This document shows, in pieces, positions 8,721 through 33,192 of a DNA stretch of 64,000 nucleotides (position 1 is its first letter; each line of letters starts with the position of its first letter). The position numbers and the translations under genes are program-made. A model generated the notes under the pieces. That model was not told where the DNA came from, ran no database searches, and was given only the letters and a program-made list of their open reading frames with translations. The DNA comes from a virus, in IMG/VR virus record IMGVR_UViG_3300032293_001730, positions 29,894 to 93,893 of that record; one strand, 5' to 3'.

Positions 8721-8840
8721 GGCGTATCTCCAAATTACAGGGAAGGAGGATACGCATCCGTGCGAGGTAGTCATGCCTCCGTGGGGGGGCGCTCTCCTTC
8801 GAGAGAGGGCCCCCCGGGGTATGCCTTTTTGGACTAATCG

Positions 8841-16868: not shown

Positions 16869-16897
16869 TTGCAATGCACCGAGACCGGTGGTATGAT
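16869..16897 (+). promoter_or_regulatory. Array promoter/operator, type A
   Basis: TTGCAA TG CACCG AGAC CGGTG G TATGAT. Confidence 0.85.
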
Positions 16898-17142: not shown

Positions 17143-17661
17143 ATGCCCTACAAATTCCTTCGAGTCACGAGCAACGACGGCCGGTGCGAGAAGTGCGGCA
17201 CGGCCTGCCCGAAGCGTCGGGTCGAGGTGCTGCCCGTCGACGCCGATGGCAACGCCTGCGGAGAGGTGCAACTCTGGGGCGTGAACTGCGCCGCCTTCGC
17301 CCGCTACGGCAGCAAGTCGCAGCGGCACCAGCAGGCCGTCGTCAACGAGGCCGTTACCGCCGAGGCTGGTCGCGCCTACTGGGAGAAGGCCCGCCTGGGG
17401 CGTGTCGCCGTCGCCGGTCAATCCTACGACTTCGGCGGGCCGGCGACTGTCGTAGTCTGCGGCAGCGGCGAGAACTCCTGCCCAGAGGGGCTTGCCAACC
17501 GCCTGTACCACCGCACCGGCCGAAACCTGATCGGCAGCTACTTCGCTCGCGGCCCCCAGGGCGAGGTTGTGCGTGTCGACGGCAGCGACGCGGCCGACGT
17601 GCAGTTCTTCGCGGATCGTGGGTATGTTCAGTGCTCGAACCCCGTGGAGGCTGCGACATGA
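17143..17661 (+). CDS. Hypothetical Zn-ribbon protein
   Basis: CEKCG...WGVNCA. Confidence 0.6.
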   Translation: MPYKFLRVTSNDGRCEKCGTACPKRRVEVLPVDADGNACGEVQLWGVNCAAFARYGSKSQRHQQAVVNEAVTAEAGRAYWEKARLGRVAVAGQSYDFGGPATVVVCGSGENSCPEGLANRLYHRTGRNLIGSYFARGPQGEVVRVDGSDAADVQFFADRGYVQCSNPVEAAT

Positions 17662-17879
17662 ACAAGCCCCAAAGGCTGTACGAGGTCACCACACCGGCTG
17701 GCAAAGTGCTGCCGCTCCGGCGAGGCCTCCAGTTCCGCCACAAGCGAATCATCGACGCCCAGTGCGTCGTCACCCGGGTGTGTCGCGGCATGGTGTACTA
17801 CAAGGTCCTCCCCAATAGCTCCAGCGACTGCTTCCCCGTCGACCAGTTCGACCGATGGGCCGAAATCCCCGTGGAATAG
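17658..17879 (+). CDS. Hypothetical protein
   Basis: Coupled ORF ending GTGGAATAG just before the next promoter. Confidence 0.55.
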   Translation: MNKPQRLYEVTTPAGKVLPLRRGLQFRHKRIIDAQCVVTRVCRGMVYYKVLPNSSSDCFPVDQFDRWAEIPVE

Positions 17880-17885
17880 CCCCCC

Positions 17886-17914
17886 TTGCAATGCACCGAC
17901 GTCGGTGCTATACT
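17886..17914 (+). promoter_or_regulatory. Array promoter/operator, type A
   Basis: TTGCAA TG CACCG ACGT CGGTG C TATACT (perfect 16-bp palindrome). Confidence 0.9.
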
Positions 17915-17937
17915 TGGGGCACCCCAGGAGAAATACC

Positions 17938-18873
17938 ATGACCGACCTCAGCATCCTCTCGCCCTCCGAAGTCGACACGATCTACCTGAAGCGGCTTGCC
18001 TCCTACGACCGTGCTGCGAACGCCCTCGGCTATGCGACCGACCGCGTCCTCCGCGAGTCGGGCGATCAAGTCGGCGTCCAGACCGGCCGCCGCGCATGGT
18101 CCTGGCACATCGTCCGCAAGGGCACGACCCTGCCGAGCTACCCGGTCTACGCCGACGTCCAGCCGCACCTCCTGACGGTCCAAGAGTGCGTCGACGGCCG
18201 TCTGGCGTCGGCTGAAAGCCTGGACGCCCTGGCCCAGGCCACGACCGTCTGCCGCGAGGCCCAGTCGGCCTGCCGCGAGGTCGAGGTCGAGTACGCTCGC
18301 CGACCCTGGAGTCGCTACTGGCTCGTCACGTCGAGCGACGGGCACATCCACCGCTCGTGCCATTGCTCGACGTGCAATAAGGGCCTCCGCCGCACGGGGT
18401 TCGCTCTGACGCCGTTCCTGAGCGGCAAGTCTGACGCCGATGCCGTTGCCGACCTGGGCCCGGCGCTGTGCAGCGTCTGCTTCCCGGACGCCCCGGTCGA
18501 GTCGAGGGAGCAGTCCCGCATCCCGGCCCGGCTCGCCCTGGCCCTCGCCGAGGAGGGCGTCGAGGCCTTCCAGAAGGCTCGCCAGGAGGCATCGGCCAAG
18601 CGGGCCGCTCGGTGCCCCGGCTCGGGCCAGCAAGGCATCCTGGACGGCCACCGGGCCTTCCACAAGTGCCCGGTCTGCGGCGAGTCTCAGCGGGCCACCG
18701 CAGGCGGCAAGTTTCGGCCCCACAAGCCGGCCCAGTTCTACATCGAGAACAACGACTACAAGGCCTGGAACGGCTCTGCCTGGGGCCCCCGCACGAAGGC
18801 CGCGATCTACGGGTCTTTCGACGAGGCCGAGGCGGTGGCGGCTCAGGTCAACGGCAAAGCGAGGAGGAAGTGA
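17938..18873 (+). CDS. Hypothetical Cys/His-rich phage protein
   Basis: GHIHRSCHCSTC, LCSVCFPDAPV, CPGSG..CPVCG; RBS CAGGAG. Confidence 0.7.
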   Translation: MTDLSILSPSEVDTIYLKRLASYDRAANALGYATDRVLRESGDQVGVQTGRRAWSWHIVRKGTTLPSYPVYADVQPHLLTVQECVDGRLASAESLDALAQATTVCREAQSACREVEVEYARRPWSRYWLVTSSDGHIHRSCHCSTCNKGLRRTGFALTPFLSGKSDADAVADLGPALCSVCFPDAPVESREQSRIPARLALALAEEGVEAFQKARQEASAKRAARCPGSGQQGILDGHRAFHKCPVCGESQRATAGGKFRPHKPAQFYIENNDYKAWNGSAWGPRTKAAIYGSFDEAEAVAAQVNGKARRK

Positions 18874-19118
18874 TGGAACTCGAAGAACCGCTCGATCCGA
18901 AGGAAGCCGCAGCCGCCATCCGGGGCATCGTGACGAACTGGAGGGCCTGCACTCAGGCCGCCGGGCTCGCCAAGAAGGCCGGGAGGGGCCGGGACGCCGT
19001 CGAGCCCCTGGCTGCCTCCCTGGCCGCGATCATCGAGGCTGCGGCGTGGCTGTCCCAGGGCGACGGCGAGGACCGGCTCGCCCTGGCCCGGGCGGTGGCC
19101 GAGGGGCTTGTGTCATAG
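18873..19118 (+). CDS. Hypothetical protein; stop supplied by box A
   Basis: Ends CTTGTGTCATAG (LVS*). Confidence 0.6.
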   Translation: MELEEPLDPKEAAAAIRGIVTNWRACTQAAGLAKKAGRGRDAVEPLAASLAAIIEAAAWLSQGDGEDRLALARAVAEGLVS

Positions 19119-19134
19119 GCCGAAAACGACCCCC

Positions 19135-19163
19135 TTGCAATGCACCGAGGCCGGTGCTATACT
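19135..19163 (+). promoter_or_regulatory. Array promoter/operator, type A
   Basis: TTGCAA TG CACCG AGGC CGGTG C TATACT. Confidence 0.9.
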
Positions 19164-19205
19164 TGAGGCAGACGGGACGAGAAACCACTAACCAGGAGAC
19201 GACCA

Positions 19206-19919
19206 GTGAGCACTTTCATCCGACAAGCGTTCGAGACCTACAAGCGACTCTTCGAGGCCCGTCAGGCCGCCGTCGCCGCCGGCCATTACATCCTCCAGGG
19301 ACCGTCCCTTGTCGGCTACCTGGGCGACGGCGTCACTGAGGCTGTGCCGACGTGCAGAGACCTCCAGAAACGGTACTTCGAGGCCCAGGCCTCGCTTCTC
19401 GAAGGCCTCGATGCCGTGATCAAGTCGAAGACCGGATTCGCCGGCTCATTCGCTGCCCTGGTCGACGCCCAGCGGCTGCACGGGTACGTTCCGACGATCC
19501 GCCCCGATGGCGACGACGAACTTGCCGTTCTGGCCGATGCCTACGACTTCGCCGTCGAGAGACAGGCCCTGCCGAGCGAGTGCTACCGGGGCGTCCAGGC
19601 CCAGGCTGCCAAGCCCCGCACGGTCCACCTCCTCGACGACCTGGGGGTCTACAAGGCGACCCTGAAGCGGAACTTCGCCGACAACGACCGGGGCGCCGAG
19701 TTCGACCGCGACCGGGAACTGCTCGCCCGCAGGACGCAGCGGTACACGCTCGAAGAGGCCGAGGTGCTGCTCGGGTGGTGCTCCACGTCGCACGACGACT
19801 GCGTCGACGAGAACCCAGAGGACTACAGCCCGATCGAGGTCTACACCGCCCGGCAGAAGCTCCTCCGGCGGGACGACGCCGTGGCTCGCCTGGAGGCCTT
19901 GAAGGCGGCCGTGCCATAG
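19206..19919 (+). CDS. Hypothetical protein
   Basis: AACCAGGAGA leader; ends GTGCCATAG. Confidence 0.7.
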   Translation: MSTFIRQAFETYKRLFEARQAAVAAGHYILQGPSLVGYLGDGVTEAVPTCRDLQKRYFEAQASLLEGLDAVIKSKTGFAGSFAALVDAQRLHGYVPTIRPDGDDELAVLADAYDFAVERQALPSECYRGVQAQAAKPRTVHLLDDLGVYKATLKRNFADNDRGAEFDRDRELLARRTQRYTLEEAEVLLGWCSTSHDDCVDENPEDYSPIEVYTARQKLLRRDDAVARLEALKAAVP

Positions 19920-19923
19920 CCCC

Positions 19924-19952
19924 TTGCAATGCACCGAGGCCGGTGCTATACT
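19924..19952 (+). promoter_or_regulatory. Array promoter/operator, type A (identical to the 19135 copy)
   Basis: TTGCAA TG CACCG AGGC CGGTG C TATACT. Confidence 0.9.
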
Positions 19953-19989
19953 GCCCCCAGTCGATCACCACCAGCCAGGAGCCAAACCG

Positions 19990-20871
19990 ATGAGCAGCTA
20001 CCCCCGAGCCAAGATCGCCAGCCCCGCCAAGATCGTCGTCGACCCCTGCTTCCGCTGCGGCGGCGGTGGCGTCGTCCCGCCCTGGGGCGAGTGTTTCCGC
20101 TGCGGTGGCAACGGCAAGGACCCGACTTACCGTAGCTGGGCCTATCCGTCCGACTGGACCGACGACCAGTGCAAGGCCCACGAGGCCGCTCGCGACGCCA
20201 GGAACGAGGCGGCCCGGGGCCGGGCCCACGCCAAGAAGCAGGCCGAGGCCACCCGCGTCTGGGAGGCCAACGTGGCGGCCCACCCGATCCTGGTCGAGGC
20301 CAAGGCGGCCCTCCAGGCGTACTCGGACGGCGAGCCCGAGCCCGTCCTCGAAGGCCTGTACGGCGAGGAGACGCACGACTCGATCCGGGCCCGCAACGAG
20401 TACGCCCGGCTCAACTCCCTGCCGCCGTTCGTGTACGACATCGTCTCGAAGGCCAGCCGGTTCCAGGTCAGCGAGAAGCAGGCGGCGGCCGTCGAGAAGG
20501 CCCTCGCCGACCGGGACTCGCGGCACGTCCGGGACGAGGCCCGCAAGGCGTCGTTCAAGGACATCCCCGCCGGCCGGGGCGAGGTCGAGGGCGTGATCGT
20601 GAGCGTCAAGAACACCTCGACTCAGGTGGGCTACCGCACGGTCTCGCAGACCAAGGTGCTCGTCCAGTGCGACGGCTACCGCCTGTACGGCACCGTGCCG
20701 TCGGCTGTCACCGCCATCGCCTACCGCGACGGCTACCCCGCCGATGCAGCCTCCAAGCTCCAGGGCCTCCGCATTCGCTTCACCGCTACGGTCCAGCCGA
20801 AGGAGGCCGGCTTCGGCTTCTTCAGCCGCCCGACCGGCGGCGAGGTGCTCGACGCGGCGGCCACCGCCTGA
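19990..20871 (+). CDS. Hypothetical protein with DnaJ-like Zn finger and beta-rich (OB-like) C-terminus
   Basis: CFRCGGGG..CFRCGGNG; ends TGA followed by ATTGTCCGGATAC. Confidence 0.65.
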   Translation: MSSYPRAKIASPAKIVVDPCFRCGGGGVVPPWGECFRCGGNGKDPTYRSWAYPSDWTDDQCKAHEAARDARNEAARGRAHAKKQAEATRVWEANVAAHPILVEAKAALQAYSDGEPEPVLEGLYGEETHDSIRARNEYARLNSLPPFVYDIVSKASRFQVSEKQAAAVEKALADRDSRHVRDEARKASFKDIPAGRGEVEGVIVSVKNTSTQVGYRTVSQTKVLVQCDGYRLYGTVPSAVTAIAYRDGYPADAASKLQGLRIRFTATVQPKEAGFGFFSRPTGGEVLDAAATA

Positions 20872-20907
20872 ATTGTCCGGATACACCAACCCCCAGGAGA
20901 CTTGCCC

Positions 20908-21393
20908 GTGAACGCCTCCCCAGTCACCACGTTCGCCAAGCTGGCCGAGTCCGCCGGCTGGCGGTTCGAGACAGCCTGGACCGACCGTGAGCCCAACCCT
21001 GAGGCCCTGGAGATCGCCGGCGCCCGCTACGCCACGCTCGTGTCTGCCGACGGGCTCGTGAAGGTGGGGCTCGTCGGCACGCGGCTCTACTACCACGGCG
21101 GGCGGGTCTGGTGGGGCGACCCCTGCTTCGACATCGAGCCCGACCGCGTCACGGTCGCCGGGATCGTCGTCGACCCGGGCCACCGTCGCCAGAGGCTCGG
21201 GACGGCGGCCGTGCGGTCGCTCGTGGACGTGGCCGACCAGGGCGGCTTCCGGCTGCTCCTGGAGGCCCAGCCGATCGGAACGGGCATCAGCCGGCGGAAG
21301 CTGGTGCAGTGGTACAAGGGCCTGGGGTTCGAGCCCGCCTACCCCGGTGAGGGCGAGACGATCTTGTGTCATAGGCCGAAAGCGGCCTGTTGA
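20908..21393 (+). CDS. GNAT-family acetyltransferase
   Basis: [14 protein letters not shown] (motif A); LVQWYKGLGF (motif B). Confidence 0.8.
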   Translation: MNASPVTTFAKLAESAGWRFETAWTDREPNPEALEIAGARYATLVSADGLVKVGLVGTRLYYHGGRVWWGDPCFDIEPDRVTVAGIVVDPGHRRQRLGTAAVRSLVDVADQGGFRLLLEAQPIGTGISRRKLVQWYKGLGFEPAYPGEGETILCHRPKAAC

Positions 21394-21418
21394 CAATGCA
21401 CCGACCCCGGTGTATACT
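21390..21418 (+). promoter_or_regulatory. Array promoter/operator, type B
   Basis: TTGACA ATG CACCG ACCC CGGTG TATACT. Confidence 0.9.
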
Positions 21419-21460
21419 TGGGGGACGACGGACGAAACACCACCTATCAGGAGACGAACC

Positions 21461-21886
21461 GTGAGCGACAATGCCACCTATTTCATCAAGCTGAAGAGCC
21501 TGTCGAATCAGGCGTGCGAGACGCAGACGATCACCAAGGCCAACGAGAGCACGCCCGTGTTCGTCGCTCGGGTTCAGGCCGTCGCCAGGGGCTGGGGGCG
21601 GGGCAACGGCAGCACCGCCGTTCAGGTCTCCGTCGAGACCTACGGCGGTGAATGCGTCGTCTCGGCTCACGCCTTCGCCATCCCCGCGACGCCGGTCGAG
21701 GTCGACGAGGACGAGCAGCCCGTCACGATCACCATCACGAAGGCTCAGGCCGCGATCGTCCTGGCGGGCCTCTCAAGGCGGTACATCGAGCTTGAGTGCC
21801 TCGGAGGCTGGGAGGCGAATGTCCTCGGCCAGGAGACAAAGGCCACCTACCAGTCGATCGACAAGCAGGTCTACGGCGACGCTTGA
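21461..21886 (+). CDS. Hypothetical protein
   Basis: CAGGAGA leader; ends TGA TTGTCCGGATAC. Confidence 0.65.
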   Translation: MSDNATYFIKLKSLSNQACETQTITKANESTPVFVARVQAVARGWGRGNGSTAVQVSVETYGGECVVSAHAFAIPATPVEVDEDEQPVTITITKAQAAIVLAGLSRRYIELECLGGWEANVLGQETKATYQSIDKQVYGDA

Positions 21887-21932
21887 TTGTCCGGATACGC
21901 AGAACCATCACCCTCAACCAGGAGACTTACCA

Positions 21933-22463
21933 GTGAACATCGACAAGCCGATCCGAATCGAAGCGGGCAAGTACGAGTATCGCGGCTTCACGATCGAGCG
22001 GGCCACGAACATTCGCGGCTGCCCCTGGATCGTGAAGGGGCGTGGGCTTGGGTGGCAGCCCTGCTTCAAGACAATCCTCCGTGCATGGCAAGAAATCCGC
22101 TACTGGGAGCACACGTTCGCCAATGGCGGGAGGCTCTCGCCGGCCACGCTCAAGGCCTTCGCCCCCGCGAAGACCATCAAGCTGCCCCCTGCGTTCTACC
22201 AGGACCACTCGGAGCGAGACTTGCCCACACCCGAAGACATCGGCAATGCCAAGAGTTACGTCCTGGTCCGGGCCGACGACCCCGCCCTGCCTGAGCTTCT
22301 CAACGACGCCGAGTTCTGCGCCGATCCCTGGGGGCCTGACGCCGAGTGGCTCGGCGGGCTCAAGGCCTCAGCCAGGGCGACGATCAGGGCCATCCGGGAC
22401 GTCACCGGCTGGGACGACGCAAGTGATACGGTCAAGCGGCTGCGGAAGCCGCAAAAGGCCTGA
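21933..22463 (+). CDS. Hypothetical protein
   Basis: AACCAGGAGA leader, GTG start. Confidence 0.65.
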   Translation: MNIDKPIRIEAGKYEYRGFTIERATNIRGCPWIVKGRGLGWQPCFKTILRAWQEIRYWEHTFANGGRLSPATLKAFAPAKTIKLPPAFYQDHSERDLPTPEDIGNAKSYVLVRADDPALPELLNDAEFCADPWGPDAEWLGGLKASARATIRAIRDVTGWDDASDTVKRLRKPQKA

Positions 22464-22474
22464 TTTCAGGCCCC

Positions 22475-22503
22475 TTGACAATGCACCGACTGCGGTGTAT
22501 ACT
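22475..22503 (+). promoter_or_regulatory. Array promoter/operator, type B
   Basis: TTGACA ATG CACCG ACTG CGGTG TATACT. Confidence 0.9.
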
Positions 22504-22520
22504 TGGGGCACACGGGAGAC

Positions 22521-22736
22521 ATGACCATGAGCAAGCAGTCGATCAAGTGGCACGACATCCGGTGGCTCCAGGGGCCGACGCACTACTACGCGAACATCGG
22601 CGGCACCCTTCACCAGATCAACCGCTCGACGGTCTCGGCCTGGGGGTTCCGGGCATCGGGATACGACCTCGTGGTCGCCGGCCGGACGGTGGGCAGCTTC
22701 CGCCGGCTCGCCGACGCGAAGGAGGCCTGCCGATGA
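22521..22736 (+). CDS. Small hypothetical protein
   Basis: RBS GGGAGA; F.RLADAK motif. Confidence 0.55.
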   Translation: MTMSKQSIKWHDIRWLQGPTHYYANIGGTLHQINRSTVSAWGFRASGYDLVVAGRTVGSFRRLADAKEACR

Positions 22737-22942
22737 CCACCGCAGCCATCAAGCGAGCCCTGGTAGCCATGACGAGCGGCGAGTGCCGCTGGATCGGCCG
22801 CGAGGACGTCCACGTCTACTGCCGCAGCCCGCTCAACCACGGGAGGACCTACCGCGTCGTCACGGCCGACCGGGACTACGAGGGGCAGCCGTGGATCGAG
22901 GCGGAGGCCGCCCTGGCCGTGATCAAGCAGCTTGTGTCATAG
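22733..22942 (+). CDS. Small hypothetical protein; stop supplied by box A
   Basis: Ends CTTGTGTCATAG (LVS*). Confidence 0.55.
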   Translation: MTTAAIKRALVAMTSGECRWIGREDVHVYCRSPLNHGRTYRVVTADRDYEGQPWIEAEAALAVIKQLVS

Positions 22943-22945
22943 GCC

Positions 22946-22974
22946 TTGCATAGCACCGACGTCGGTGCTATACT
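22946..22974 (+). promoter_or_regulatory. Array promoter/operator, type A
   Basis: TTGCAT AG CACCG ACGT CGGTG C TATACT. Confidence 0.88.
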
Positions 22975-23016
22975 GGGACAGTCGAGAACGAAACACCACT
23001 AACCAGGAGACGAGCC

Positions 23017-23355
23017 GTGAAAGACCCCCTCAAGAACATCATCAAGTCCGCCGGCTTCGAGGACGTGACCTGCGACGTCCCTGTGTCCTGCTACTCCCTG
23101 CCCCTGACGTTCCGGGCATTCCACGCCCTGCACGCCCTGGACCACGGGCTCATCGGCACGCCCGACTACCTGGGCATCGCCTACTTCTGGGCGCACGACT
23201 ACAAGTTCTATCTCCGCGAGGCGACGCAAAAGCAGCGGAAGATCGTCCACGATCTGTTCCTCAAGGCGGGGCTCGCCCTCGACGGGGTCAGTCCAGAGCA
23301 CGCCGCGATCGTCGAGAAGCACCTCGGCAAGCGGCTCAAGAAGGTCTACGGCTGA
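23017..23355 (+). CDS. Hypothetical protein
   Basis: AACCAGGAGA leader. Confidence 0.65.
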   Translation: MKDPLKNIIKSAGFEDVTCDVPVSCYSLPLTFRAFHALHALDHGLIGTPDYLGIAYFWAHDYKFYLREATQKQRKIVHDLFLKAGLALDGVSPEHAAIVEKHLGKRLKKVYG

Positions 23356-23385
23356 TACCATCCACCCCTAACCAGGAGACCACCC

Positions 23386-23652
23386 GTGAACAACAAGCTG
23401 CTACAAGACGAGCTTCGCACCTGCATCCGCCTTCTCCGCTGCTACGCGCGAGCCGAGCGAGATCGCGGAGACGCCCATCAGGCTGCCGGCATCGGCAGGC
23501 ATATCGACCGGATATGCGCCGTGTCGCTTCACGCCGGGGGGGTGAAGGAGATCGAGCCGGGCGTGTTCTCGACTGGTGGGCTCTTTGCCCGCCGCTACCT
23601 CGACCTGACGGACGGCACGAAGCAGCACTTGCGGGAACTGCTCGCGTCATAG
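23386..23652 (+). CDS. Hypothetical protein; stop supplied by a box A variant
   Basis: AACCAGGAGA leader; ends GCGTCATAG GCC. Confidence 0.6.
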   Translation: MNNKLLQDELRTCIRLLRCYARAERDRGDAHQAAGIGRHIDRICAVSLHAGGVKEIEPGVFSTGGLFARRYLDLTDGTKQHLRELLAS

Positions 23653-23705
23653 GCCGCGCCCGAAAACGTCAAGCGATCCACCACCACCAACCAGGAGACT
23701 TGCCC

Positions 23706-24029
23706 ATGAACACCCAAAAGACCATCACATTCGGCAAACGGCACAGCGTCGCGGTGACGTTCTACAAGGGATCGGACGGCCTCTGGCACGCCCACGGTGG
23801 GCTCCTGGTCGTCCCAAGAAAGAGCCTCAAGGCAGCCCGCGCGGCGGTCGCCAGTCGCCTCCAGAGCCTCAGCCGCCTCGGCCCGGGCTCGAAGGTGAAG
23901 CTCTGGGGCTCGACCTGGAGGGTCGTCGAGTGGCAGCCCGAGAACGGCAAGGGCGGGGCCTACTGGCTCCGGAACTCTAAGGGCGAGGACGCCGTGGCCG
24001 GGCCCGACGAAGTGGAGCGTGTGTCATAG
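23706..24029 (+). CDS. Hypothetical protein; stop supplied by box A
   Basis: AACCAGGAGA leader; ends GTGTCATAG (RVS*). Confidence 0.6.
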   Translation: MNTQKTITFGKRHSVAVTFYKGSDGLWHAHGGLLVVPRKSLKAARAAVASRLQSLSRLGPGSKVKLWGSTWRVVEWQPENGKGGAYWLRNSKGEDAVAGPDEVERVS

Positions 24030-24032
24030 GCC

Positions 24033-24061
24033 TTGCCAATGCACCGATCCCGGTGTATACT
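24033..24061 (+). promoter_or_regulatory. Array promoter/operator, type B
   Basis: TTGCCA ATG CACCG ATCC CGGTG TATACT. Confidence 0.88.
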
Positions 24062-24104
24062 GCACCCAGACGACGACGAAACACAACTAACCAGGAGACA
24101 TCGA

Positions 24105-24419
24105 ATGATCATCTACAGCGTCGACAAGCCGGGCACCCCGAAGGTTTCCAAGGGAGACCTGGAGTACACGAGTCAAAAGCACGTCGCGTTCCAGGGCCTC
24201 TGCCGCGTCGAGGCGGCCGCCGACGAGTTCTTCGGCGGCAGTCGCTCGAAGCCCTACGTCGGCCGCGTCCTGGAAAGCCCCACCTGGGGGAAGCTCCTGG
24301 CCGAGGCCAGGAAGGTCCAGCGGGCCACCCGGGACGAGCACCACGTCTTCCTGGAGGGCGCCCGCGTCCGGTACGTCGACGGCGGCGTCCAGGTGATCGA
24401 GCTTTTCTTTGGTTCCTGA
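24105..24419 (+). CDS. Hypothetical protein
   Basis: AACCAGGAGA leader; PTWGKL..EA...DEHHVFLEG. Confidence 0.65.
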   Translation: MIIYSVDKPGTPKVSKGDLEYTSQKHVAFQGLCRVEAAADEFFGGSRSKPYVGRVLESPTWGKLLAEARKVQRATRDEHHVFLEGARVRYVDGGVQVIELFFGS

Positions 24420-24423
24420 GGCC

Positions 24424-24452
24424 TTGCAATGCACCGGCATCGGTGCTATACT
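24424..24452 (+). promoter_or_regulatory. Array promoter/operator, type A
   Basis: TTGCAA TG CACCG GCAT CGGTG C TATACT. Confidence 0.9.
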
Positions 24453-24494
24453 TGGGACACGACGAACGAAACACCATTCACGAGGAGACGACCA

Positions 24495-25112
24495 GTGAGC
24501 ACCACCAACTACATCCCGAAGCCCGAGTCCGTCGAGCTTCACCTCGGCAGCGACCCCCATTTCACGAAGAAGTACGGCAAGGCCGTCAAGGCCCTGGGCG
24601 GACGGTACAGTGAATGCCGTGGCGACGCCCACCGTCGGTTCGTCACGCTGCCCTGGAACGATGAAGGCCGGTCGCTGGCAAACAAGCTGGTCGCCGAGTT
24701 CGGCACCGGCAGCCTCCTGTGCGGCAAGACGACGCTGATCGTGCGGGGCAGTGAGACGTTCCGGGGGAAGCACGTTCACGCCTGGGTTGTCGTCCACAAG
24801 GTCGCTCGCGGCTCCGTCGACCCGTGCGGGGTGCTGCTCGGCCTGTACGAGGCCGCTTTCCTCCTGGCCTTCCCTGAGGCCGCGTTCCCCGAGCCGCCCG
24901 TCGTCAAGGCCCCGAAGCCGCTCGCCGCCGACCTGTACCTCAACACGCCGGTGAAGTTCCACGCCGTCCTCGAAGCCCTGCAACAGTACATCGACAACGG
25001 CAACGACGCAGACCACCTCGCCGACGACGAGGAACTTCAGGCCAAGCTGGAGGCCGCAGAGGCTTTCCGCGACCAGCTTGACGGAGTCCTGGCGTCCCTC
25101 GCCAATGCCTGA
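24495..25112 (+). CDS. Hypothetical protein
   Basis: GAGGAGA leader; ends TGA TTGTCCGGATAC. Confidence 0.65.
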   Translation: MSTTNYIPKPESVELHLGSDPHFTKKYGKAVKALGGRYSECRGDAHRRFVTLPWNDEGRSLANKLVAEFGTGSLLCGKTTLIVRGSETFRGKHVHAWVVVHKVARGSVDPCGVLLGLYEAAFLLAFPEAAFPEPPVVKAPKPLAADLYLNTPVKFHAVLEALQQYIDNGNDADHLADDEELQAKLEAAEAFRDQLDGVLASLANA

Positions 25113-25158
25113 TTGTCCGGATACGCTTACCCCCCACCACCCAGCCGGGAGACGAACC

Positions 25159-25434
25159 GTGAGAGAGAACATCCTCAAGCTCACCGACAAGGAAATCGAG
25201 TTCATCAAGAACAGCCTCCGCCGCTCCTCGCAGCGAGGCGAAGACGAGGAGCGTGTCGCCGAGCAGGCCGGCAACGCCGAAGCTGCGGCCTTCTATCGCC
25301 AACTGGCTAAAGACGCGACGAGCCTGCTTCTCGTCATCGAGGTGCAGGTCGCCAAGCCTGACGAAGACAGCGACGAGTGCCCGGAGTGCGGCGAGGACTA
25401 CGGATACTGCCAGTGCGAAGACGAGGAGAACTGA
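25159..25434 (+). CDS. Hypothetical protein with C-terminal Zn-knuckle
   Basis: CPECGEDYGYCQC. Confidence 0.6.
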   Translation: MRENILKLTDKEIEFIKNSLRRSSQRGEDEERVAEQAGNAEAAAFYRQLAKDATSLLLVIEVQVAKPDEDSDECPECGEDYGYCQCEDEEN

Positions 25435-25534
25435 CCTTCCACCTAACCCAGCAAGCCCGCGACATCCTGAAGTACGCCCAGGCATCCACCCACGTCCAGA
25501 GACAATCGAAACTCGAAGCGAAGGAGGCGGTTAA

Positions 25535-25867
25535 GTGAACAAGCTCAAATTCGTTAAGCCGCTCAAGAGCGACCAAAGACACTACGTCCACGGCGAGAGA
25601 ATCGAGCGGTGGGGCTGGTATCGAGACAGCGAGTACCGTCAGGTCTTCGCGTATGTCATCACAGAAAGCTGCAAGGCCTATCGCTGGCCGGGCGGCAAAC
25701 TGGTGGCAGAGCATCGCGAGAAGCCGATGGCCGTGGATCACTACGCATACTCTCGGCAAGCGAGGTGGCCGACGGCCCCGTGGCTCCAGCGTTCGTACAC
25801 GAAACTTGCGTCGCTGTGCCGCAAGGATTTTGAGACTCGATCGAAAACCCAGGAGACCGTCCAGTGA
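25535..25867 (+). CDS. Hypothetical protein
   Basis: RBS AAGGAGG. Confidence 0.55.
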   Translation: MNKLKFVKPLKSDQRHYVHGERIERWGWYRDSEYRQVFAYVITESCKAYRWPGGKLVAEHREKPMAVDHYAYSRQARWPTAPWLQRSYTKLASLCRKDFETRSKTQETVQ

Positions 25868-26091
25868 GCATCCCCCTGAACCTCACCGCAAGCCAGCAGT
25901 CGCTCCTCGCGGAGCTTTGCTGCGTCATCGCGGACCTCGCCCGCACCAACGACGACTGGACGGCCGTGCCGCCCGTCGAGGCTGTGCGGACCTGCAACAA
26001 GCTGCTCGAAGTCGTCGAGACGTTCGACGCGAGCAGCCAGACCTTCGGCGTCCTCTACGACAAACTCCACCGCACGGGAGCCAATGCATGA
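25864..26091 (+). CDS. Hypothetical protein
   Basis: CCAGGAGA leader; coupled. Confidence 0.5.
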   Translation: MSIPLNLTASQQSLLAELCCVIADLARTNDDWTAVPPVEAVRTCNKLLEVVETFDASSQTFGVLYDKLHRTGANA

Positions 26092-26339
26092 CCACCTACA
26101 CCACCACCCGCTCCCGTTTCTCAGACCCCAGTCAGATCACGCCCGGCAGCATCGTGAGACTCGGCGGGGGGCTGTGCAAAGTGATCACGCCTCGCATCCT
26201 GGAGTGCTGCCACACGGGGCGATGGTTCGTCGACGCGCGAGCGTTTCGAGGAGGCGAGCACGCCGAGCCGGTGAGGGTCGAGTACGTCGGCTCTCAGTCA
26301 GACCCGGCCGTCAAGGCCATGATCGAGGAGAGCAAGTGA
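26088..26339 (+). CDS. Hypothetical protein
   Basis: Coupled ORF. Confidence 0.5.
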   Translation: MTTYTTTRSRFSDPSQITPGSIVRLGGGLCKVITPRILECCHTGRWFVDARAFRGGEHAEPVRVEYVGSQSDPAVKAMIEESK

Positions 26340-26509
26340 GCCGAATCATTCTCACCGCCGAAGCAGCGAAGATTCTCGGAGTCTCGACGTCGACCGTCCG
26401 CAGACTCGCGAAGAGAGGCGACATCAAGTCTTGGAGACTTGGAGTCGGGTCCTATGGGTTCAAACTCGAAGACGTCCTGGCACGCAAGGAGAAGACATGC
26501 AAAGACTGA
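26336..26509 (+). CDS. Excisionase/MerR-like HTH protein
   Basis: ILTAEAAKILGVSTSTVRRLAKRGDIKSWRLG. Confidence 0.8.
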   Translation: MSRIILTAEAAKILGVSTSTVRRLAKRGDIKSWRLGVGSYGFKLEDVLARKEKTCKD

Positions 26510-26619
26510 TCAACGCCCTCGTGCTCGTGCGGCTCGGGCAGGAACTCGGCGCCGACACGCCCCTCGCCCGAGCCATCGCCCAACTCGTCGAAGAGGCCCT
26601 AAAACTGGGCGTGTCATAG
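26497..26619 (+). CDS. Small peptide; stop supplied by box A
   Basis: RBS AAGGAG; LVLVRLGQELG; ends GGCGTGTCATAG (GVS*). Confidence 0.55.
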   Translation: MQRLINALVLVRLGQELGADTPLARAIAQLVEEALKLGVS

Positions 26620-26624
26620 CCCCC

Positions 26625-26652
26625 TTGCAATTCACCGACGTCGGTGTATAAT
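26625..26652 (+). promoter_or_regulatory. Array promoter/operator, A/B hybrid (16-bp spacer)
   Basis: TTGCAA TT CACCG ACGT CGGTG TATAAT. Confidence 0.85.
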
Positions 26653-26693
26653 GGGGGAGTAGAGCAACGATACCACCAACCAGGAGCAAACCC

Positions 26694-27074
26694 ATGTCCG
26701 CTTTCGTGTGCAGCAAAAACCATATCGCAGCCGTCGCCGCTTTCGGCTCGTCGAAGCACGCGTTCCTCGGTGGCGGCTACGCCAGCTTCGACAGCATCTA
26801 CAAGACGCTTGCCGATGCCAACGTCCGCAGCGTGTGCCACCGCTACGGCGAGTCCGCCGATGAGTACGACAGCCTCCTGCCCCCGCCCGACAGCCGCCGG
26901 GCGCCGAAGTGCTCCGCCATCGAGATCGTCAAGTTGTGCGACTGCCTCGACTACCAGTCCAGCGAGACCGACGACTGGCGTGAGTCGGAAGCCTGCAAGC
27001 TGCTCGGCCGCATTCGCAACGCGGCGATCAACGCACTGCCCGGCTACGACGAGGCAAAGTGGGCTATCGGCTGA
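26694..27074 (+). CDS. Conserved-looking phage hypothetical protein
   Basis: MSAFVCS..HI, NVRSV.HRY, CLDYQSSE..DW; ends TGA TTGTCTGGACAC. Confidence 0.7.
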   Translation: MSAFVCSKNHIAAVAAFGSSKHAFLGGGYASFDSIYKTLADANVRSVCHRYGESADEYDSLLPPPDSRRAPKCSAIEIVKLCDCLDYQSSETDDWRESEACKLLGRIRNAAINALPGYDEAKWAIG

Positions 27075-27119
27075 TTGTCTGGACACACACACCACCCTCA
27101 ACCATCAGGAGACCTACCC

Positions 27120-27509
27120 GTGAAGTTCACAGCCCAATTCGACAAGTACGTCTGCCCAGGCGACACGATCCGCCGCAACGTGACCGACACCGTGTCGCTC
27201 GTGGCCCGGCTGGAGTTCGACCAGGACACACGCCCTGAGGACTCCGACTGCTACGACGAGAAGGACATCGCCCGCTGGAAGGCGGACGAGTGGTTCTACG
27301 GCGGCGTGGTGCTCTCGATCGAGGTCAACGGCGAGAAGGTCCGCGATCACGTCGCCAGCCTCTGGGGCATCGACTGCAACTTCGGCCAGGACAATAGCTA
27401 CCTCGCCGAGGTCGCCAACGACCTGCTCGCAGAGTCGAAGGACGAGATTCGAGACTTCCTGGAGACGCTCGCGGCTCAGGCCTCGAACGCCGCCGTGCTC
27501 GTGGCTTGA
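27120..27509 (+). CDS. Hypothetical protein
   Basis: W...EWFYGGV...SLWGID; CAGGAGA leader. Confidence 0.65.
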   Translation: MKFTAQFDKYVCPGDTIRRNVTDTVSLVARLEFDQDTRPEDSDCYDEKDIARWKADEWFYGGVVLSIEVNGEKVRDHVASLWGIDCNFGQDNSYLAEVANDLLAESKDEIRDFLETLAAQASNAAVLVA

Positions 27510-27565
27510 CGACAAAGTACGGATTCGATTACCCTCCCCCACCCCCGACGAAAGGAACCCAGCCG

Positions 27566-27883
27566 ATGGCCCACGAAACACTTGAATTCGCCGAGTTCGC
27601 CCGCCGCTACTGCGAGCGACACGTCAACACGCCCGATGGGCTCGCAGAGATATTCCAGCAACAGGTCGAGCTTTTCCAGCCCGACGGCTGGCTGCTCCTG
27701 GAATGCCAGGACTTCTCGTCGAGCCGCCTCGGGCACTACGTCATCCTGCCCTACGGCGGACAGGCGACGCTCAAGACGATCCCAGACCGGCCGGTGAGCC
27801 CCCGGGGACTCGCGAGCGACATGAGCGTCGTCGTCGCGGTACTGCCGGCGGACAAGCTGCCTTCGCAAGGAGGTGACAAGTGA
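27566..27883 (+). CDS. Hypothetical protein
   Basis: RBS AAGGA. Confidence 0.55.
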   Translation: MAHETLEFAEFARRYCERHVNTPDGLAEIFQQQVELFQPDGWLLLECQDFSSSRLGHYVILPYGGQATLKTIPDRPVSPRGLASDMSVVVAVLPADKLPSQGGDK

Positions 27884-28227
27884 ACGCAATCAGAATCATT
27901 CACCCGCGATGGGAGGACGGCGCCCTCGTGTTCGACGACCCGGCCGTGGGGCTCGTTCGCGAGCCCTTCGTCGCGGGGGCTGACGTGGCGATCGGGCTCC
28001 TGGCGAAGAAAGTCAAAGGATGCAGCCGCGAGTTCTCGCTGCTCTTCTCCGACTCGCCGTTCCCGGGGCATCAGGCGTCGATGAAGTGGCAGAGCGAGGA
28101 GTACGGCGGCAACTGGTATTACTGCAAGCAACTTGGCATGAGCGGCTGGCTGTGTCCGGCGTTGCTCAAGTATTTCGATTCCGCACCGAAGAATCTGTAC
28201 CTCCAGGTCAAGCGAAAGGAGTCTTGA
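27880..28227 (+). CDS. DUF6717-like protein
   Basis: VFDD...GLVREPFVAGAD, FS..PFPG, GGNWY, GWLCPALLKYF. Confidence 0.7.
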   Translation: MNAIRIIHPRWEDGALVFDDPAVGLVREPFVAGADVAIGLLAKKVKGCSREFSLLFSDSPFPGHQASMKWQSEEYGGNWYYCKQLGMSGWLCPALLKYFDSAPKNLYLQVKRKES

Positions 28228-28562
28228 TGATCACGATCGAGAGACATGATGAGTATCGAGTCTCGGAGCGTGTGGTGCTTCGCCCAGGCGACGTGTTCCG
28301 CGCGACCGATGGCCCGTACTGGCGGTCAGGCAAGGACGAGATCAGCTTGAAAGCCCCAGGCCCGTATCGCTTCGTGTCGTTTGCGAAGCGAGGCGCCGTC
28401 GGCTGGATCGAAGCGTTCGACAAGTTTGGCAACTTCACGGTGCTTCACATCGAGGGCCGTCGCAAGAAGATCGACACCGCGATCGTGGCTCGTCCGTACC
28501 GTGTCATCGGAAAAAAGCGGCCTCAATTGCAACGGCTTGACAATAGGAAGAAGGGTCGCTAG
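28227..28562 (+). CDS. Hypothetical protein
   Basis: RBS AAGGAG; coupled. Confidence 0.55.
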   Translation: MITIERHDEYRVSERVVLRPGDVFRATDGPYWRSGKDEISLKAPGPYRFVSFAKRGAVGWIEAFDKFGNFTVLHIEGRRKKIDTAIVARPYRVIGKKRPQLQRLDNRKKGR

Positions 28563-28565
28563 AAT
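28537..28565 (+). promoter_or_regulatory. Sigma70-type promoter without the palindrome
   Basis: TTGACA-17 bp-TAGAAT, preceded by the box-A-like GTGTCATCGG at 28501. Confidence 0.7.
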
Positions 28566-30138: not shown

Positions 30139-31503
30139 ATGGACGTCCCCCCGTGGGGGCACCAACAGTCCGGATCGGACTGGCTGGTGTCTCGACAATT
30201 TGGCTATTTGGGCCACGAGGTCGGCTGCGGCAAGAGCCGCACGCTCCTCATGGCCGTCCGAGACAGGCGACTCGTCCTGCTCGTGTGCCCGATCGCCGTC
30301 GGCCCTGCCTGGATCAAGCAGGTCAAGCTGTTCGCCGGCGACCGCAACGTCGTCGTCGTCGTCGAGGGCTCGGCGACGAAGCGGGCGAAGGCCATCCGCG
30401 ACTCGCTTGCCACGGATGGCAAGCTGCTCGTCGTCGTCAACTACGACTCTGCCTACCGAGGCGAGGTCGGGAAGGCTCTGCAATCGACTCAGTGGGACGC
30501 CATCGTCTGCGACGAGTCTCACAGGATCAAGTCGCACACAGGCAAGGCGTCGAAGTTCCTGGCGAAACTCGCCAGGGCCAATCCGCAGTCTCTGCGGGTC
30601 TGCATGTCCGGAACGCCGACGCCCAACAATCCGCTCGACTGGTTCGCGCAGTTTCGGTTCCTCGACCCGTCGGTGCTCGGCGAGAACTACCACTCGTTCA
30701 AGAATCGCATTGCGATCACGCACCCCCGCTATCCGGGATGGATCACGGGCTTTAGAGACGAGGCTCTGGCCTCACTCAGGACGCGGATCGACGAGCACAT
30801 TCACCGGGTTAAAGCCGACGACGTGCTCACTCTGCCGGACGCGATTCACACCACGATCCCTGTCACGATCAACGCGACCGTCAGGAAGTTCTACAGCGAC
30901 ATGGAGGCCGATCAGATCGCCCGCCTTGAACGCGGCGAGGCGGTGACGGCCGCGAATGCGATGGTGGTCGTCGGCCGGCTCCAGGCCGCTGCCAGCGGTT
31001 TCGCCCGCGCTGATGGATCGGACGTGTTCGAGCGAATCGCCGGCGAGCCGGACAAGCGGCTTGCCCTTCGAGAGTTCCTCGCGGATTTCCCGCAGCGGGA
31101 GCCGCTCGTCGTGTTCGTGAAATTCATCGAGGACCTGCGGGAGGTCGCCGAGGAATGCAAGGCCGGCGGACGCACAGTGTCGCTGCTCTGCGGGGCGACG
31201 AAGCAACTCATTGACTGGCAGGAAGGCCTGACGGACGTGATCGTCGTCCAGCAACAGGCCGGCGGCGCCGGTGTGGACCTCACGCGGGCGAGCTACTGCG
31301 TGTACTACTCGCTGTCGCACAGCCTGGGTGACTTCGAGCAATCGCTCGGCCGGCTGCGTCGCCCAGGCCAGAAGAACTGCGTCCGCTACTACCACCTCGT
31401 CGCCGAGGGGACGGTCGACGAGGACATCTACGCAGCGTTGCAAGACAAGTCGGACATCGTGGAGTCGATTCTTTCAAACCTGACGAGGAGGGTGGCAGCA
31501 TGA
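30139..31503 (+). CDS. SNF2-like SF2 helicase
   Basis: GCGKS, DESH, SGTP, GVDLT, QSLGRLRRPGQ. Confidence 0.9.
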   Translation: MDVPPWGHQQSGSDWLVSRQFGYLGHEVGCGKSRTLLMAVRDRRLVLLVCPIAVGPAWIKQVKLFAGDRNVVVVVEGSATKRAKAIRDSLATDGKLLVVVNYDSAYRGEVGKALQSTQWDAIVCDESHRIKSHTGKASKFLAKLARANPQSLRVCMSGTPTPNNPLDWFAQFRFLDPSVLGENYHSFKNRIAITHPRYPGWITGFRDEALASLRTRIDEHIHRVKADDVLTLPDAIHTTIPVTINATVRKFYSDMEADQIARLERGEAVTAANAMVVVGRLQAAASGFARADGSDVFERIAGEPDKRLALREFLADFPQREPLVVFVKFIEDLREVAEECKAGGRTVSLLCGATKQLIDWQEGLTDVIVVQQQAGGAGVDLTRASYCVYYSLSHSLGDFEQSLGRLRRPGQKNCVRYYHLVAEGTVDEDIYAALQDKSDIVESILSNLTRRVAA

Positions 31504-32339
31504 TTACACATAGTCTGGATACAGGACTTCGTGTCGACTACGACATGGCGAACGAGGTCTATCACGCCGAGAAGAAACACAAGAGCCGTTCTCAGGTCCA
31601 CCGCTATCGCGGCGTGCTCGGCGGCCGGGCCCAGCGGTACGCCGAAGTCCTGGGCAAGAGCCTGTTCAGCGGCAACTCGGCCACGAGCTTCGGATCGCTC
31701 GTCGACGCGGCGTTCGAGGCAGTGGTTCGTGGAGTCGACTGGCGGTCTCGCTGTGTCGTGCCCCCGCCGGGTGTCCTCGCATCGGACGGCAGTCGTCGAG
31801 GCAACGCGTTCAAGGAGTGGCGTTCGAGCTTGCCCGTCGGGGCCGTCGAGTGCTCGGAGTCTGATTTCGGCAAGTGTGCGGACATGATCGCGAGCCTCTG
31901 GGAGCACAAGGCCGCCAAGGCCCTGATGGATCAGGTCGCACACTCGCAGATGAGTGTGTTCTGGGCCGACGCCAACGGGCACAGGCGGAAGGCTCGTGCC
32001 GACGGCGTGACGCGATCCGGCGCGTGGTTCGACCTGAAGACGACGAGCAGCGAGTGGCGGGAACTCAAGTGGTCCTTCCGCCGGTTCGGCTACGACTGGC
32101 AGGCGTCTTGGTACTCACAAGCGGCGGCAGCGGCCGGTGCTGATCCTTTCGTGTTCAAGTTCATCGTCGTGCAGAGCTTCGCTCCTTACGACGTGAAGGT
32201 CGTGTCTCTCAAGCCCGAGGCCATCGAGCGGGCTCGGATCGAGATCGACGAGACGCTCTTCGAGATGCATCGTCGCGAGCAGACCGGCGAGTACGTCGCC
32301 GAGTCGTATCACGAGGAAGAGGTGCTCGACCTCGACTGA
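31500..32339 (+). CDS. RecE/exonuclease VIII-like PD-(D/E)XK nuclease (DUF3799-like)
   Basis: YHA..S.S, FGSLVD, KARAD...DLKTT, YDWQASWY. Confidence 0.8.
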   Translation: MITHSLDTGLRVDYDMANEVYHAEKKHKSRSQVHRYRGVLGGRAQRYAEVLGKSLFSGNSATSFGSLVDAAFEAVVRGVDWRSRCVVPPPGVLASDGSRRGNAFKEWRSSLPVGAVECSESDFGKCADMIASLWEHKAAKALMDQVAHSQMSVFWADANGHRRKARADGVTRSGAWFDLKTTSSEWRELKWSFRRFGYDWQASWYSQAAAAAGADPFVFKFIVVQSFAPYDVKVVSLKPEAIERARIEIDETLFEMHRREQTGEYVAESYHEEEVLDLD

Positions 32340-32424
32340 AGTCTTTAGCGACCAGAACCCGTCCGCGTCGCGGCGGTGTGTCTGTTCGTTGGTTGGTGGT
32401 AGGTAAAGAAAGGAGTTGACATAA

Positions 32425-33192
32425 ATGTCAACAACTCTTGCGGTAGCTGGTTCGTTCCGTGCCCTCGCTCCTAACAGCGAGATCGCGGAGGTCATCCAGG
32501 CGAACCTCGGTGGCGGTTCGCTGCGTCGGTCGGACCTGACGTTCGTCAAGATTCCGACGGGTGGTAGCACCCGCTGGAACTGGTCGGTCGCGGGCAACGA
32601 GTTTTCGGAGAAGAGCATCACGGGCCTGTGTGTCGTGGCGACTCGGACGGAGTACAACCTCTGGCCGCAGTCGACCGCGACGCCCGGCAGTCTTCCGTAC
32701 CTTCGTTCGCTCGACGGTGTGGTCGGGCACAAGGTCGGAGACGATCACGGCGACCTGGACCTGAAGGTCCTCGAAGCCGCGAAGAATGCGGACGGCACCT
32801 ATCGGTGGAAGGACCTGCCGTACTGCCAGTGGCAGGACCGGACCCCTCCCCGTGCGAAGCCGTCTCGCGTGGTCGGCGTTCTCCGCGAGGAGGACGCAAG
32901 TCCTTTGTTCGTGCAGATTTCTCCGACGAGCCTCAAGCCCGTCGAGGACTTTCTGCGTGCTCTCGCTGCTCAGTTCGTCCCGCACTACCGTGCGATCGTC
33001 GAACTGACGCTCGAAAAGCGGAAGGGTGCTCGGGCCGACTACGCCGCGATCGTGTGCCGCCATGTCGGCACGATCGGACAGGATGAGGGTGAACGGGCCA
33101 AGGCCTTGTTCACAACGTCCCTCACGCCTGTGTTGACCGGAGGCATCTCGCAGATCGCCCCTCGGTCGGCCGACAACGCGGTGCCCTTCTAG
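32425..33192 (+). CDS. Putative ssDNA-binding/recombination protein
   Basis: Lies between the nuclease and the primase; VKIPTGG; C-terminal ..DNAVPF like an SSB tail. Confidence 0.5.
   Translation: MSTTLAVAGSFRALAPNSEIAEVIQANLGGGSLRRSDLTFVKIPTGGSTRWNWSVAGNEFSEKSITGLCVVATRTEYNLWPQSTATPGSLPYLRSLDGVVGHKVGDDHGDLDLKVLEAAKNADGTYRWKDLPYCQWQDRTPPRAKPSRVVGVLREEDASPLFVQISPTSLKPVEDFLRALAAQFVPHYRAIVELTLEKRKGARADYAAIVCRHVGTIGQDEGERAKALFTTSLTPVLTGGISQIAPRSADNAVPF

Follow-up and report, generated by a model that had tools for sequence, protein, structure and literature searches.

The virus record IMGVR_UViG_3300032293_001730 comprises 93.9 kb and is rated 96% complete in IMG/VR. We analysed its bases 29894-93893, a stretch of 64,000 nucleotides (nt) that is called the window below and in which all coordinates are counted. 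The window has a GC content of about 62% and encodes a tyrosine integrase, an SNF2 helicase, a PDDEXK/RecE-like exonuclease, a PrimPol and a UvrD helicase; the phage belongs to an uncultured, high-GC, integrase-bearing freshwater lineage. Between 16.8 and 28.6 kb about 25 small genes, called on the basis of GC content at third codon positions (GC3) and Shine-Dalgarno sites, all lie on the plus strand and form a one-directional early-gene array. Comparison with Pfam and PHROGs left most of these small genes without a family and revealed no obvious repressor among them. The subject of this work is a short repeat, designated box A, at which many unrelated genes of the array end, together with the promoter units that follow it.

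Related phages were recovered by pattern scans of viral and metagenome contigs. The same array was present in four IMG/VR contigs, G001 (96 kb), G002, G003 and G004, and in seven high-GC metagenome contigs; in pairwise comparisons the phage of the window is referred to as G000. G002 is a second independent assembly with a promoter spacing identical to that of G001. A first, loose DNA pattern scan of viral contigs had yielded mostly chance matches and only L036 and L080 as relatives, and a scan for box A plus the -35 hexamer also gave chance matches, with the operator palindrome described below in none of the matches listed. A megablast search with the region from 17 to 29 kb found no match among deposited phage genomes.

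The array is punctuated by ten sigma70-like promoter units located between 16869 and 26652 on the plus strand, with -35 hexamers starting at 16869, 17886, 19135, 19924, 21390, 22475, 22946, 24033, 24424 and 26625. They are composed of TTGCAA or TTGACA at -35, a 17-nt spacer and TATACT at -10. The spacer of all ten contains the palindrome CACCG-N4-CGGTG, although only 0.2 palindrome-bearing units were expected; promoter-like sites as a whole numbered 11 in the region from 16.5 to 29 kb versus 0.8 expected. The palindrome arms are invariant and show no covariation, and to judge by its sequence the palindrome probably is an operator. Each unit continues with a conserved 5' untranslated region (5'UTR) of about 45 nt, a Shine-Dalgarno site and the start codon, and these 5'UTRs are 85-100% identical ahead of unrelated genes. 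Most genes or gene pairs have a predicted promoter of their own. The preceding genes come very close to these promoters, as upstream stop codons lie 0-12 nt from the -35 hexamer in nearly all units, and AT content reaches 50-80% at positions -14 to -6 relative to that hexamer compared to a background of about 35%.

Box A is the leftmost conserved part of this repeated regulatory cassette of approximately 85-110 bp, in which it is followed by 3-6 nt of G/C (15-16 nt where a spacer has been inserted), the -35 hexamer, the 17-nt spacer, the -10 hexamer, the 5'UTR, the Shine-Dalgarno site and the start codon. The motif has a 9-base core, extends to 9-12 bases overall and is nearly invariant, with fixed G/C positions. 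The exact sequence GTGTCATAG occurs five times in the window, whereas 0.23 occurrences were expected from shuffled sequences and five or more were reached in none of 100 shuffles. All five copies, starting at 19110, 21366, 22934, 24021 and 26611, are on the plus strand; there is none on the minus strand and none elsewhere in the whole 93.9 kb record. Likewise, exact copies in all relatives are confined to the plus strand and to the arrays. With at most one mismatch the window contains 18 matches versus 6.9 expected.

The first-pass annotation had noticed that non-homologous genes end in nearly the same codons, and for most of the gene ends that it listed this is confirmed. The exact copy at 19110-19121 provides the TAG (19116-19118) that ends gene 18870-19118 with ..LVS*; it is situated 16 nt upstream of the -35 hexamer, with a small hairpin insert in between. 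The exact copies at 22934-22945 and 24021-24032 stop genes 22733-22942 (..LVS*) and 23706-24029 (..RVS*), each 3 nt before the -35 hexamer, and the one at 26611-26622 stops the gene of a 40-amino-acid protein (26497-26619, ..GVS*) 5 nt before it. Two copies with a single mismatch behave in the same way: GTGCCATAG at 19911-19922 ends gene 19206-19919 (..AVP*), with the -35 hexamer 4 nt on, and the copy at 23644-23655 ends gene 23386-23652 (..LAS*). The remaining two listed sites, also on the plus strand, are weak. The one at 17871-17882, at the stop of gene 17658-17879 (..PVE*), is a doubtful, degenerate copy with two mismatches, and the orthologue in L144 has drifted further and ends in PEE*. 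The one at 28501-28512 has one mismatch and no TAG, lies inside the coding sequence of gene 28227-28562 and, for its mismatch class, is no better than chance.

The exact copy at 21366-21377 is read differently. It lies in frame 2 of the GNAT gene (20908-21393), which, as had been pointed out in the first-pass annotation, crosses box A out of frame and stops at a TGA (21391-21393) inside the -35 hexamer TTGACA. The Pfam domain of this protein ends near residue 143 of 161. A GNRA-like hairpin of the form GGCCG-loop-CGGCC is located between box A and the -35 hexamer in two cassettes (19118-19131 and 21374-21387); in L150 the hairpin version is 12 nt longer and the GNAT reading frame is kept down to the TGA in the -35 hexamer.

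Taking the window and its relatives together, 12 non-homologous gene families stop in frame at the TAG of box A. These represent 12 of the 13 families whose open reading frame (ORF) enters box A (binomial p ~2e-5 for an expectation of 1/3). Prompt termination is available only in this frame: stops in all three frames are present in just 4 of 23 cassettes, so that an ORF entering in frame 1 or 2 would be extended by tens of residues or into the next gene. The notion that the cassettes are three-frame stop insulators was rejected, as only these 4 of 23 fit it. ORFs that do not meet a box A still reach to within 0-12 nt of the -35 hexamer or enter the promoter, and their stops are then made by the promoter itself, in the form of TTGTAA, the TGA of TTGACA, a TAG abutting the -35 hexamer or, at 28560, a TAG inside the -10 hexamer.

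Some variants of these promoter-borne stops were noted in passing. A TAA within the -35 hexamer (TTGTAA for TTGCAA) ends three ORFs of relatives (L130, 10232-10237 and 11084-11089; L132, 1182-1187), and in family 26 this TAA accompanies the loss of box A, which the G004 homologue retains. At 28537-28565 a different, near-consensus promoter (TTGACA-17-TAGAAT) lies wholly within the 3' end of gene 28227-28562, whose stop TAG is formed by the first three bases of the -10 hexamer TAGAAT; the arrangement is identical in G003.

If box A really supplies the last codons of these genes, homologues in another downstream context should end differently. This is what we found. In families 4, 26, 34, 37, 39, 0 and 12, which have members both with and without box A, similarity ends at the left edge of the box, and divergence is confined to the last 2-5 residues. 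Members of family 4 with box A end in ..ALKAAVP*, ..KAVS* or ..EAAS*, those without it in ..ALKAATA* (at a box B, see below) or ..ALKRL*, and database homologues of this family end in AAAT, GGE, AAVS and GGE. The corresponding pairs are ..LPGAVS* and ..LPGVDG* in family 34, ..RLRKPVS* and ..RLRKPKKA* in family 39, ..PDLVS* and either ..PDESP* or ..PDLPSEE* in family 37, and ..IEALAS* and ..IEAPL* (TAA in the -35 hexamer, TTGTAA) in family 26. Database homologues of family 12 end in ..EIE* or ..TVHN*, in contrast to ..ERVS* in the window. Since homologues in different downstream contexts lack the xVS tail, the repeat must supply those codons, and the earlier proposal that box A provides the stop and the final codons of unrelated genes is thus borne out.

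Box A is kept as DNA whether it is translated or not: most genes that enter it read it in frame, the GNAT gene reads it in another frame, and further copies are non-coding. This indicates selection at the level of the DNA and agrees with the first-pass view that the peptide is not its target. The clearest non-coding copies precede the first promoter of the array. There GTGTCATAGAGACTT is invariant in G001, G003, G004, L135 and L146, while its immediate left flank differs in each of the five phages and consists of different terminator-like hairpins. L143 retains GTGTCATA, without the TAG, after a 12-nt deletion that turned a long spacing into a short one, and in G004 two non-coding copies of box A lie behind an earlier stop. 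The alternative that the xVS C-terminus is a functional tail, for instance a degradation or sorting signal, could appeal to the many small proteins with V-S or A-S as their last two residues, but to judge from the sequences it is effectively refuted by the copies that are out of frame in the GNAT gene or lie in non-coding DNA and by the other tails of homologues without box A.

The position of box A relative to the promoter is also restricted. It is present in 25 of 46 non-identical promoter units of the window and its relatives, and the distance from its TAG to the -35 hexamer is 3 nt in ten units, 4 nt in three, 5 nt in four, 6 nt in one, 15 nt in five and 16 nt in two; distances of 7-14 nt never occur. 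The units consequently fall into a class of 18 at 3-6 nt and a class of seven at 15-16 nt, the latter with three unrelated spacer sequences, and two box A copies are farther away (27 and 37 nt). Box A thus sits at about -40 to -50, and the two classes differ by roughly one helical turn, which would suggest a face-of-helix relation between box A and the promoter. UP elements are stretches of A/T-rich DNA at about -40 to -60 that are effective on one helix face.

A variant of the unit occurs outside the high-GC phages. In the metagenome contigs L137, L152 and L153, which have a GC content of 46-47%, the promoter and the CACCG-N4-CGGTG palindrome are nearly letter-identical to those of the array, so that the regulatory unit spans phages about 18% apart in GC content. 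In these contigs CTAAAG replaces box A, exactly 6 nt upstream of the -35 hexamer, and its TAA stops the upstream ORF in three of seven cases.

Not all gene borders are formed by promoter cassettes. At 20869-20910 on the plus strand there is a second linker, box B, in which the stop codon TGA directly adjoins a conserved motif; a Shine-Dalgarno site and a start codon follow, but there is no promoter. Further copies are located at 21884-21933, 25110-25159 and 27072-27120 on the same strand. Box B runs into the Shine-Dalgarno/start region that it shares with the promoter cassettes, and in several comparisons it was a breakpoint site.

The comparison of G000 and G003 is particularly informative regarding the exchange of genes. 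The blocks shared by both phages are about 95% identical and are interrupted by nine indels or replacements, all of whose ends lie in linker elements: three to four inside promoters, about four in the Shine-Dalgarno/start repeat and two to three at stops or box B. An example of a joint inside promoters is that between 22475 and 22946, which corresponds to a single chimeric promoter in G003. The first promoter of the window (16869-16897) is itself chimeric and unites two promoters that stand 2 kb apart in G003; the two genes between them are missing. A joint of the Shine-Dalgarno/start type bounds a 288-nt insert containing gene 23386-23652 and its promoter-less box A. G001 possesses one promoter where the window has the region from 22475 to 24424. 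Taken together, the comparisons of G000 with G001, G003 and G004 showed indels and replacements that are delimited by the cassettes and leave chimeric ones. Contigs from four other freshwater runs added further joints at the same linker elements (19202 to 21911; 19936 to 21413, with a chimeric promoter; 23366 to 24089), including the back-joins 24423 to 21390 and 25133 to 19190, and in a contig of run X2 a different upstream sequence is joined at 19109/19110.

The segment 19911-20862 (952 nt), which is absent from G003, has the first base of box A as its left end. It is flanked by a 7-nt direct repeat, GGCGGCC, and as a result of the event the upstream ORF continues in frame into the final two codons of the gene that follows. 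No event with box A at both ends was found among the approximately nine G000/G003 indels and the joints of the other runs. The idea that box A marks a crossover or capture junction is therefore not supported: joints occur throughout the cassette and also in the other linker, one is at the edge of box A and none joins box A to box A. Where downstream genes were exchanged, box A stayed with the upstream gene (families 9, 19, 11 and 4, and the GNAT gene), and at the first promoter it stayed with the promoter. Both outcomes are expected if box A is simply the outer edge of the shared homology.

Two further gene loci deserve mention in connection with these exchanges. A 57-amino-acid DNA-binding protein of the HTH_17 type (excisionase/MerR-like) is encoded within the array at 26336-26509 with a 13-nt overlap with the next gene. 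G003 and contigs of three or four other runs lack exactly this gene, with joints from 26328/26330 to 26487/26497/26506. Downstream of the array, the RecE-like gene (exonuclease VIII, PDDEXK) at 31500-32339 on the plus strand is a candidate component of a phage system for recombination, for which the short repeats could be substrates. It is followed, within 31500-33192, by the gene of a 255-amino-acid protein of unknown family (phrog_23155), a putative annealing partner that might act with the exonuclease.

The reading that in our opinion accounts best for these observations, and that we consider fairly probable, is that box A is the left edge of a promoter cassette punctuating the early array, and that the whole is a system similar to the promoter-early stem-loop (PeSL) cassettes of T4-like phages in a new phage group. 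According to this explanation the array would be so compact that an upstream ORF extends into the following cassette and ends at whichever in-frame stop comes first there, usually the TAG of box A and otherwise a TGA or TAA inside the -35 hexamer. New joints between a gene and a cassette would survive mainly in the TAG frame, giving rise to the common xVS* tails. We infer that extreme compaction combined with selection on new joints explains the frame bias, so that a frame-setting mechanism is not required. The joints described above show in part that modules the size of a gene are acquired, deleted and rearranged through recombination at any point in the cassettes and the box B linker; the exchange may proceed by homologous or microhomology-mediated recombination, possibly with the help of the RecE-like system. 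With regard to box A itself we favour a DNA-level role as a putative site of protein contact at the promoter, be it for a regulator or as an upstream promoter element, on one helix face relative to the -35 hexamer. This suggestion is drawn from three observations: non-coding copies behind terminator-like hairpins are conserved, the spacing falls into classes, and the orientation is fixed.

Several observations weigh against this reading. One copy of box A (23644) stands without a promoter, although the homologous junction of L138 has one 15 nt downstream. Conversely, about 45% of the promoter units lack box A, an identical promoter-plus-gene unit can be found with or without it, and the first promoter of the window has lost the copy that G001, G003, G004, L135 and L146 retain. 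The box-less units and the loss at the first promoter indicate that box A is dispensable for the promoter. Its fixed G/C positions make it unlike a generic AT-rich UP element, yet a protein that binds it did not come to light. The abrupt left-hand limit of homology at box A and the five different flanks of the first-promoter copies would also be expected from a precise capture mechanism. Finally, the relatives and the contigs with joints are metagenome assemblies, in which mis-joins at repeats are possible.

One alternative, which we consider unlikely, is a roadblock resembling the stoperators of mycobacteriophages, in which a phage repressor bound to the asymmetric box A would halt transcription into the next cassette in the lysogen. 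Box A is a multi-copy 9-12-mer that is asymmetric, points one way with respect to transcription and occurs at gene ends, where it overlaps stops; Brown and colleagues reportedly described stoperators in such terms in 1997. The fixed G/C positions of box A fit sequence-specific recognition. The resemblance to the sites of cluster A mycobacteriophages (bound by L5 gp71) includes the short, asymmetric, multi-copy and uniformly oriented sites and the tiny intergenic gaps or stop/start overlaps. However, the stoperators of cluster A share the sequence of the promoter operator and are distributed genome-wide, whereas box A differs from the operator-like palindrome and is limited to the early array, and no candidate for a monomeric repressor was identified.

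In a further view, which we regard as quite improbable, box A would be a dedicated, sequence-specific protein site that marks the left end of self-contained promoter cassettes and at the same time a universal in-frame stop adaptor; the early region would then follow an integron-like capture grammar without an integron integrase, the box directing or biasing where new genes become attached.

It is very unlikely that box A works at the RNA level, as a 3' processing or stability signal, as a context for termination at the stop codon or as a pairing partner of the 5'UTR that follows. The observation that box A remains with the upstream gene when the downstream gene is exchanged would suit such a role, and in minimum-free-energy folds GUGUC often pairs with GACAC of the 5'UTR. 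But neither GACAC in the UTR nor this pairing tracks the presence of box A, and the folding of 24 units gave no consistent partner for it. In addition, the first-promoter copies are situated behind terminator-like hairpins, where little transcription is expected. A search of the region from 15 to 30 kb against Rfam (E<=1) gave no match, terminator-like sites in the array were no more frequent than expected by chance, and the motif, being invariant, shows no covariation.

Also very unlikely, and slightly less probable still, is integron-like capture, in which box A would be the core site of a recombinase and cassettes would move by exchange between one box A and another. Several facts point in this direction: homologous genes and first-promoter regions lose similarity exactly at the left edge of box A, one segment specific to G000 begins at its first base, the X2 contig joins other upstream sequence at 19109/19110, and the preference for the TAG frame is strong. 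Against this stands the lack of any event with box A at both ends, while breakpoints occur inside promoters, at the Shine-Dalgarno/start region and at box B; the sole event at the edge of box A has the flanking GGCGGCC repeat typical of a microhomology deletion. The comparison with integrons made in the first-pass annotation has some appeal, since in attC arrays, too, the ORFs of unrelated cassettes frequently have their ends within the repeat and the cassettes all run in one direction. It fails in the details. The only integrase of the window, a tyrosine integrase at 7845-8774 on the minus strand, is generic and stays far under all curated cut-offs, with a score of 46.9 bits versus the 220-bit cut-off of the best NCBIfam model, and matched no integron-integrase (IntI) model. 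Moreover, box A is not an imperfect palindrome with extrahelical bases like attC, each cassette carries its own promoter, unlike the promoter-less cassettes of integrons with their single common promoter, and the exchange points are not limited to the site. A sigma54 -24/-12 element, the lambda nut boxA/boxB and a minus-strand promoter were dropped by eye (no GG doublet, a hairpin in few copies, wrong spacings).

Judged by analogy, the closest known system to the promoter cassettes is PeSL. In T4-like phages PeSLs are mobile regulatory cassettes of about 100 bp that precede ORFans (Arbiol et al. 2010, PMC2839356; Comeau et al. 2014, PMC4122927). They begin in AT-rich DNA with the stop codon of the preceding gene and further comprise a sigma70 promoter, a stem-loop that is mostly located between -35 and -10, a Shine-Dalgarno site and a start codon; recombination between copies leaves a chimeric copy, and both mini-circles and promoter or terminator activity have been demonstrated (PMC2839356; PMC4122927). 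The likeness to the cassettes described here is extensive. Each kind is a repeat of about 100 bp that occurs in a plastic genome region with small early ORFan genes, and each starts at the stop of the upstream gene, in a patch that is richer in AT and lies 5' of the -35 hexamer. In both, the -35 and -10 elements of a sigma70-like promoter enclose a stem-loop or palindrome, and the repeat closes with the Shine-Dalgarno site and the next start. In both, the repeats bound indels between related phages and chimeric repeats are left behind.

There are also clear differences. The lineage studied here is unrelated, has a high GC content and possesses integrase, PrimPol and RecE-like genes. Where PeSLs have an AT-rich tract, the present cassettes have a discrete 9-12-mer of nearly invariant sequence, by which the last two codons are fixed. 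The palindrome arms, invariant and without covariation, resemble an operator more than a terminator, and a second, promoter-less linker (box B) shares the task. Lastly, our cassettes are known from sequence, whereas the activity and mini-circles of PeSLs were shown experimentally. Short conserved sequences at gene borders are also found in other phages, namely the boundary or linker sequences of lambdoid phages and the start-associated sequences of cluster K mycobacteriophages, which lie at mosaic joints or translation starts; they are not full promoter cassettes and do not provide a common stop plus two codons.

If the interpretation of box A as the left edge of a promoter cassette is correct, the array would be a second, phylogenetically unrelated case of cassettes that act both as early promoters and as seams for the swapping of accessory genes. 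The PeSL idea would thereby be extended from AT-rich lytic T4-like phages to high-GC, integrase-bearing freshwater phages. The array also illustrates that the final codons of unrelated proteins can be dictated by a conserved non-coding element, which calls for caution in annotation and in the interpretation of C-terminal motifs shared by small phage proteins. In metagenomic phage contigs the grammar of the cassettes may serve as a practical delimiter of ORFan modules, and the array would be a clean system for testing how short repeats guide mosaicism.

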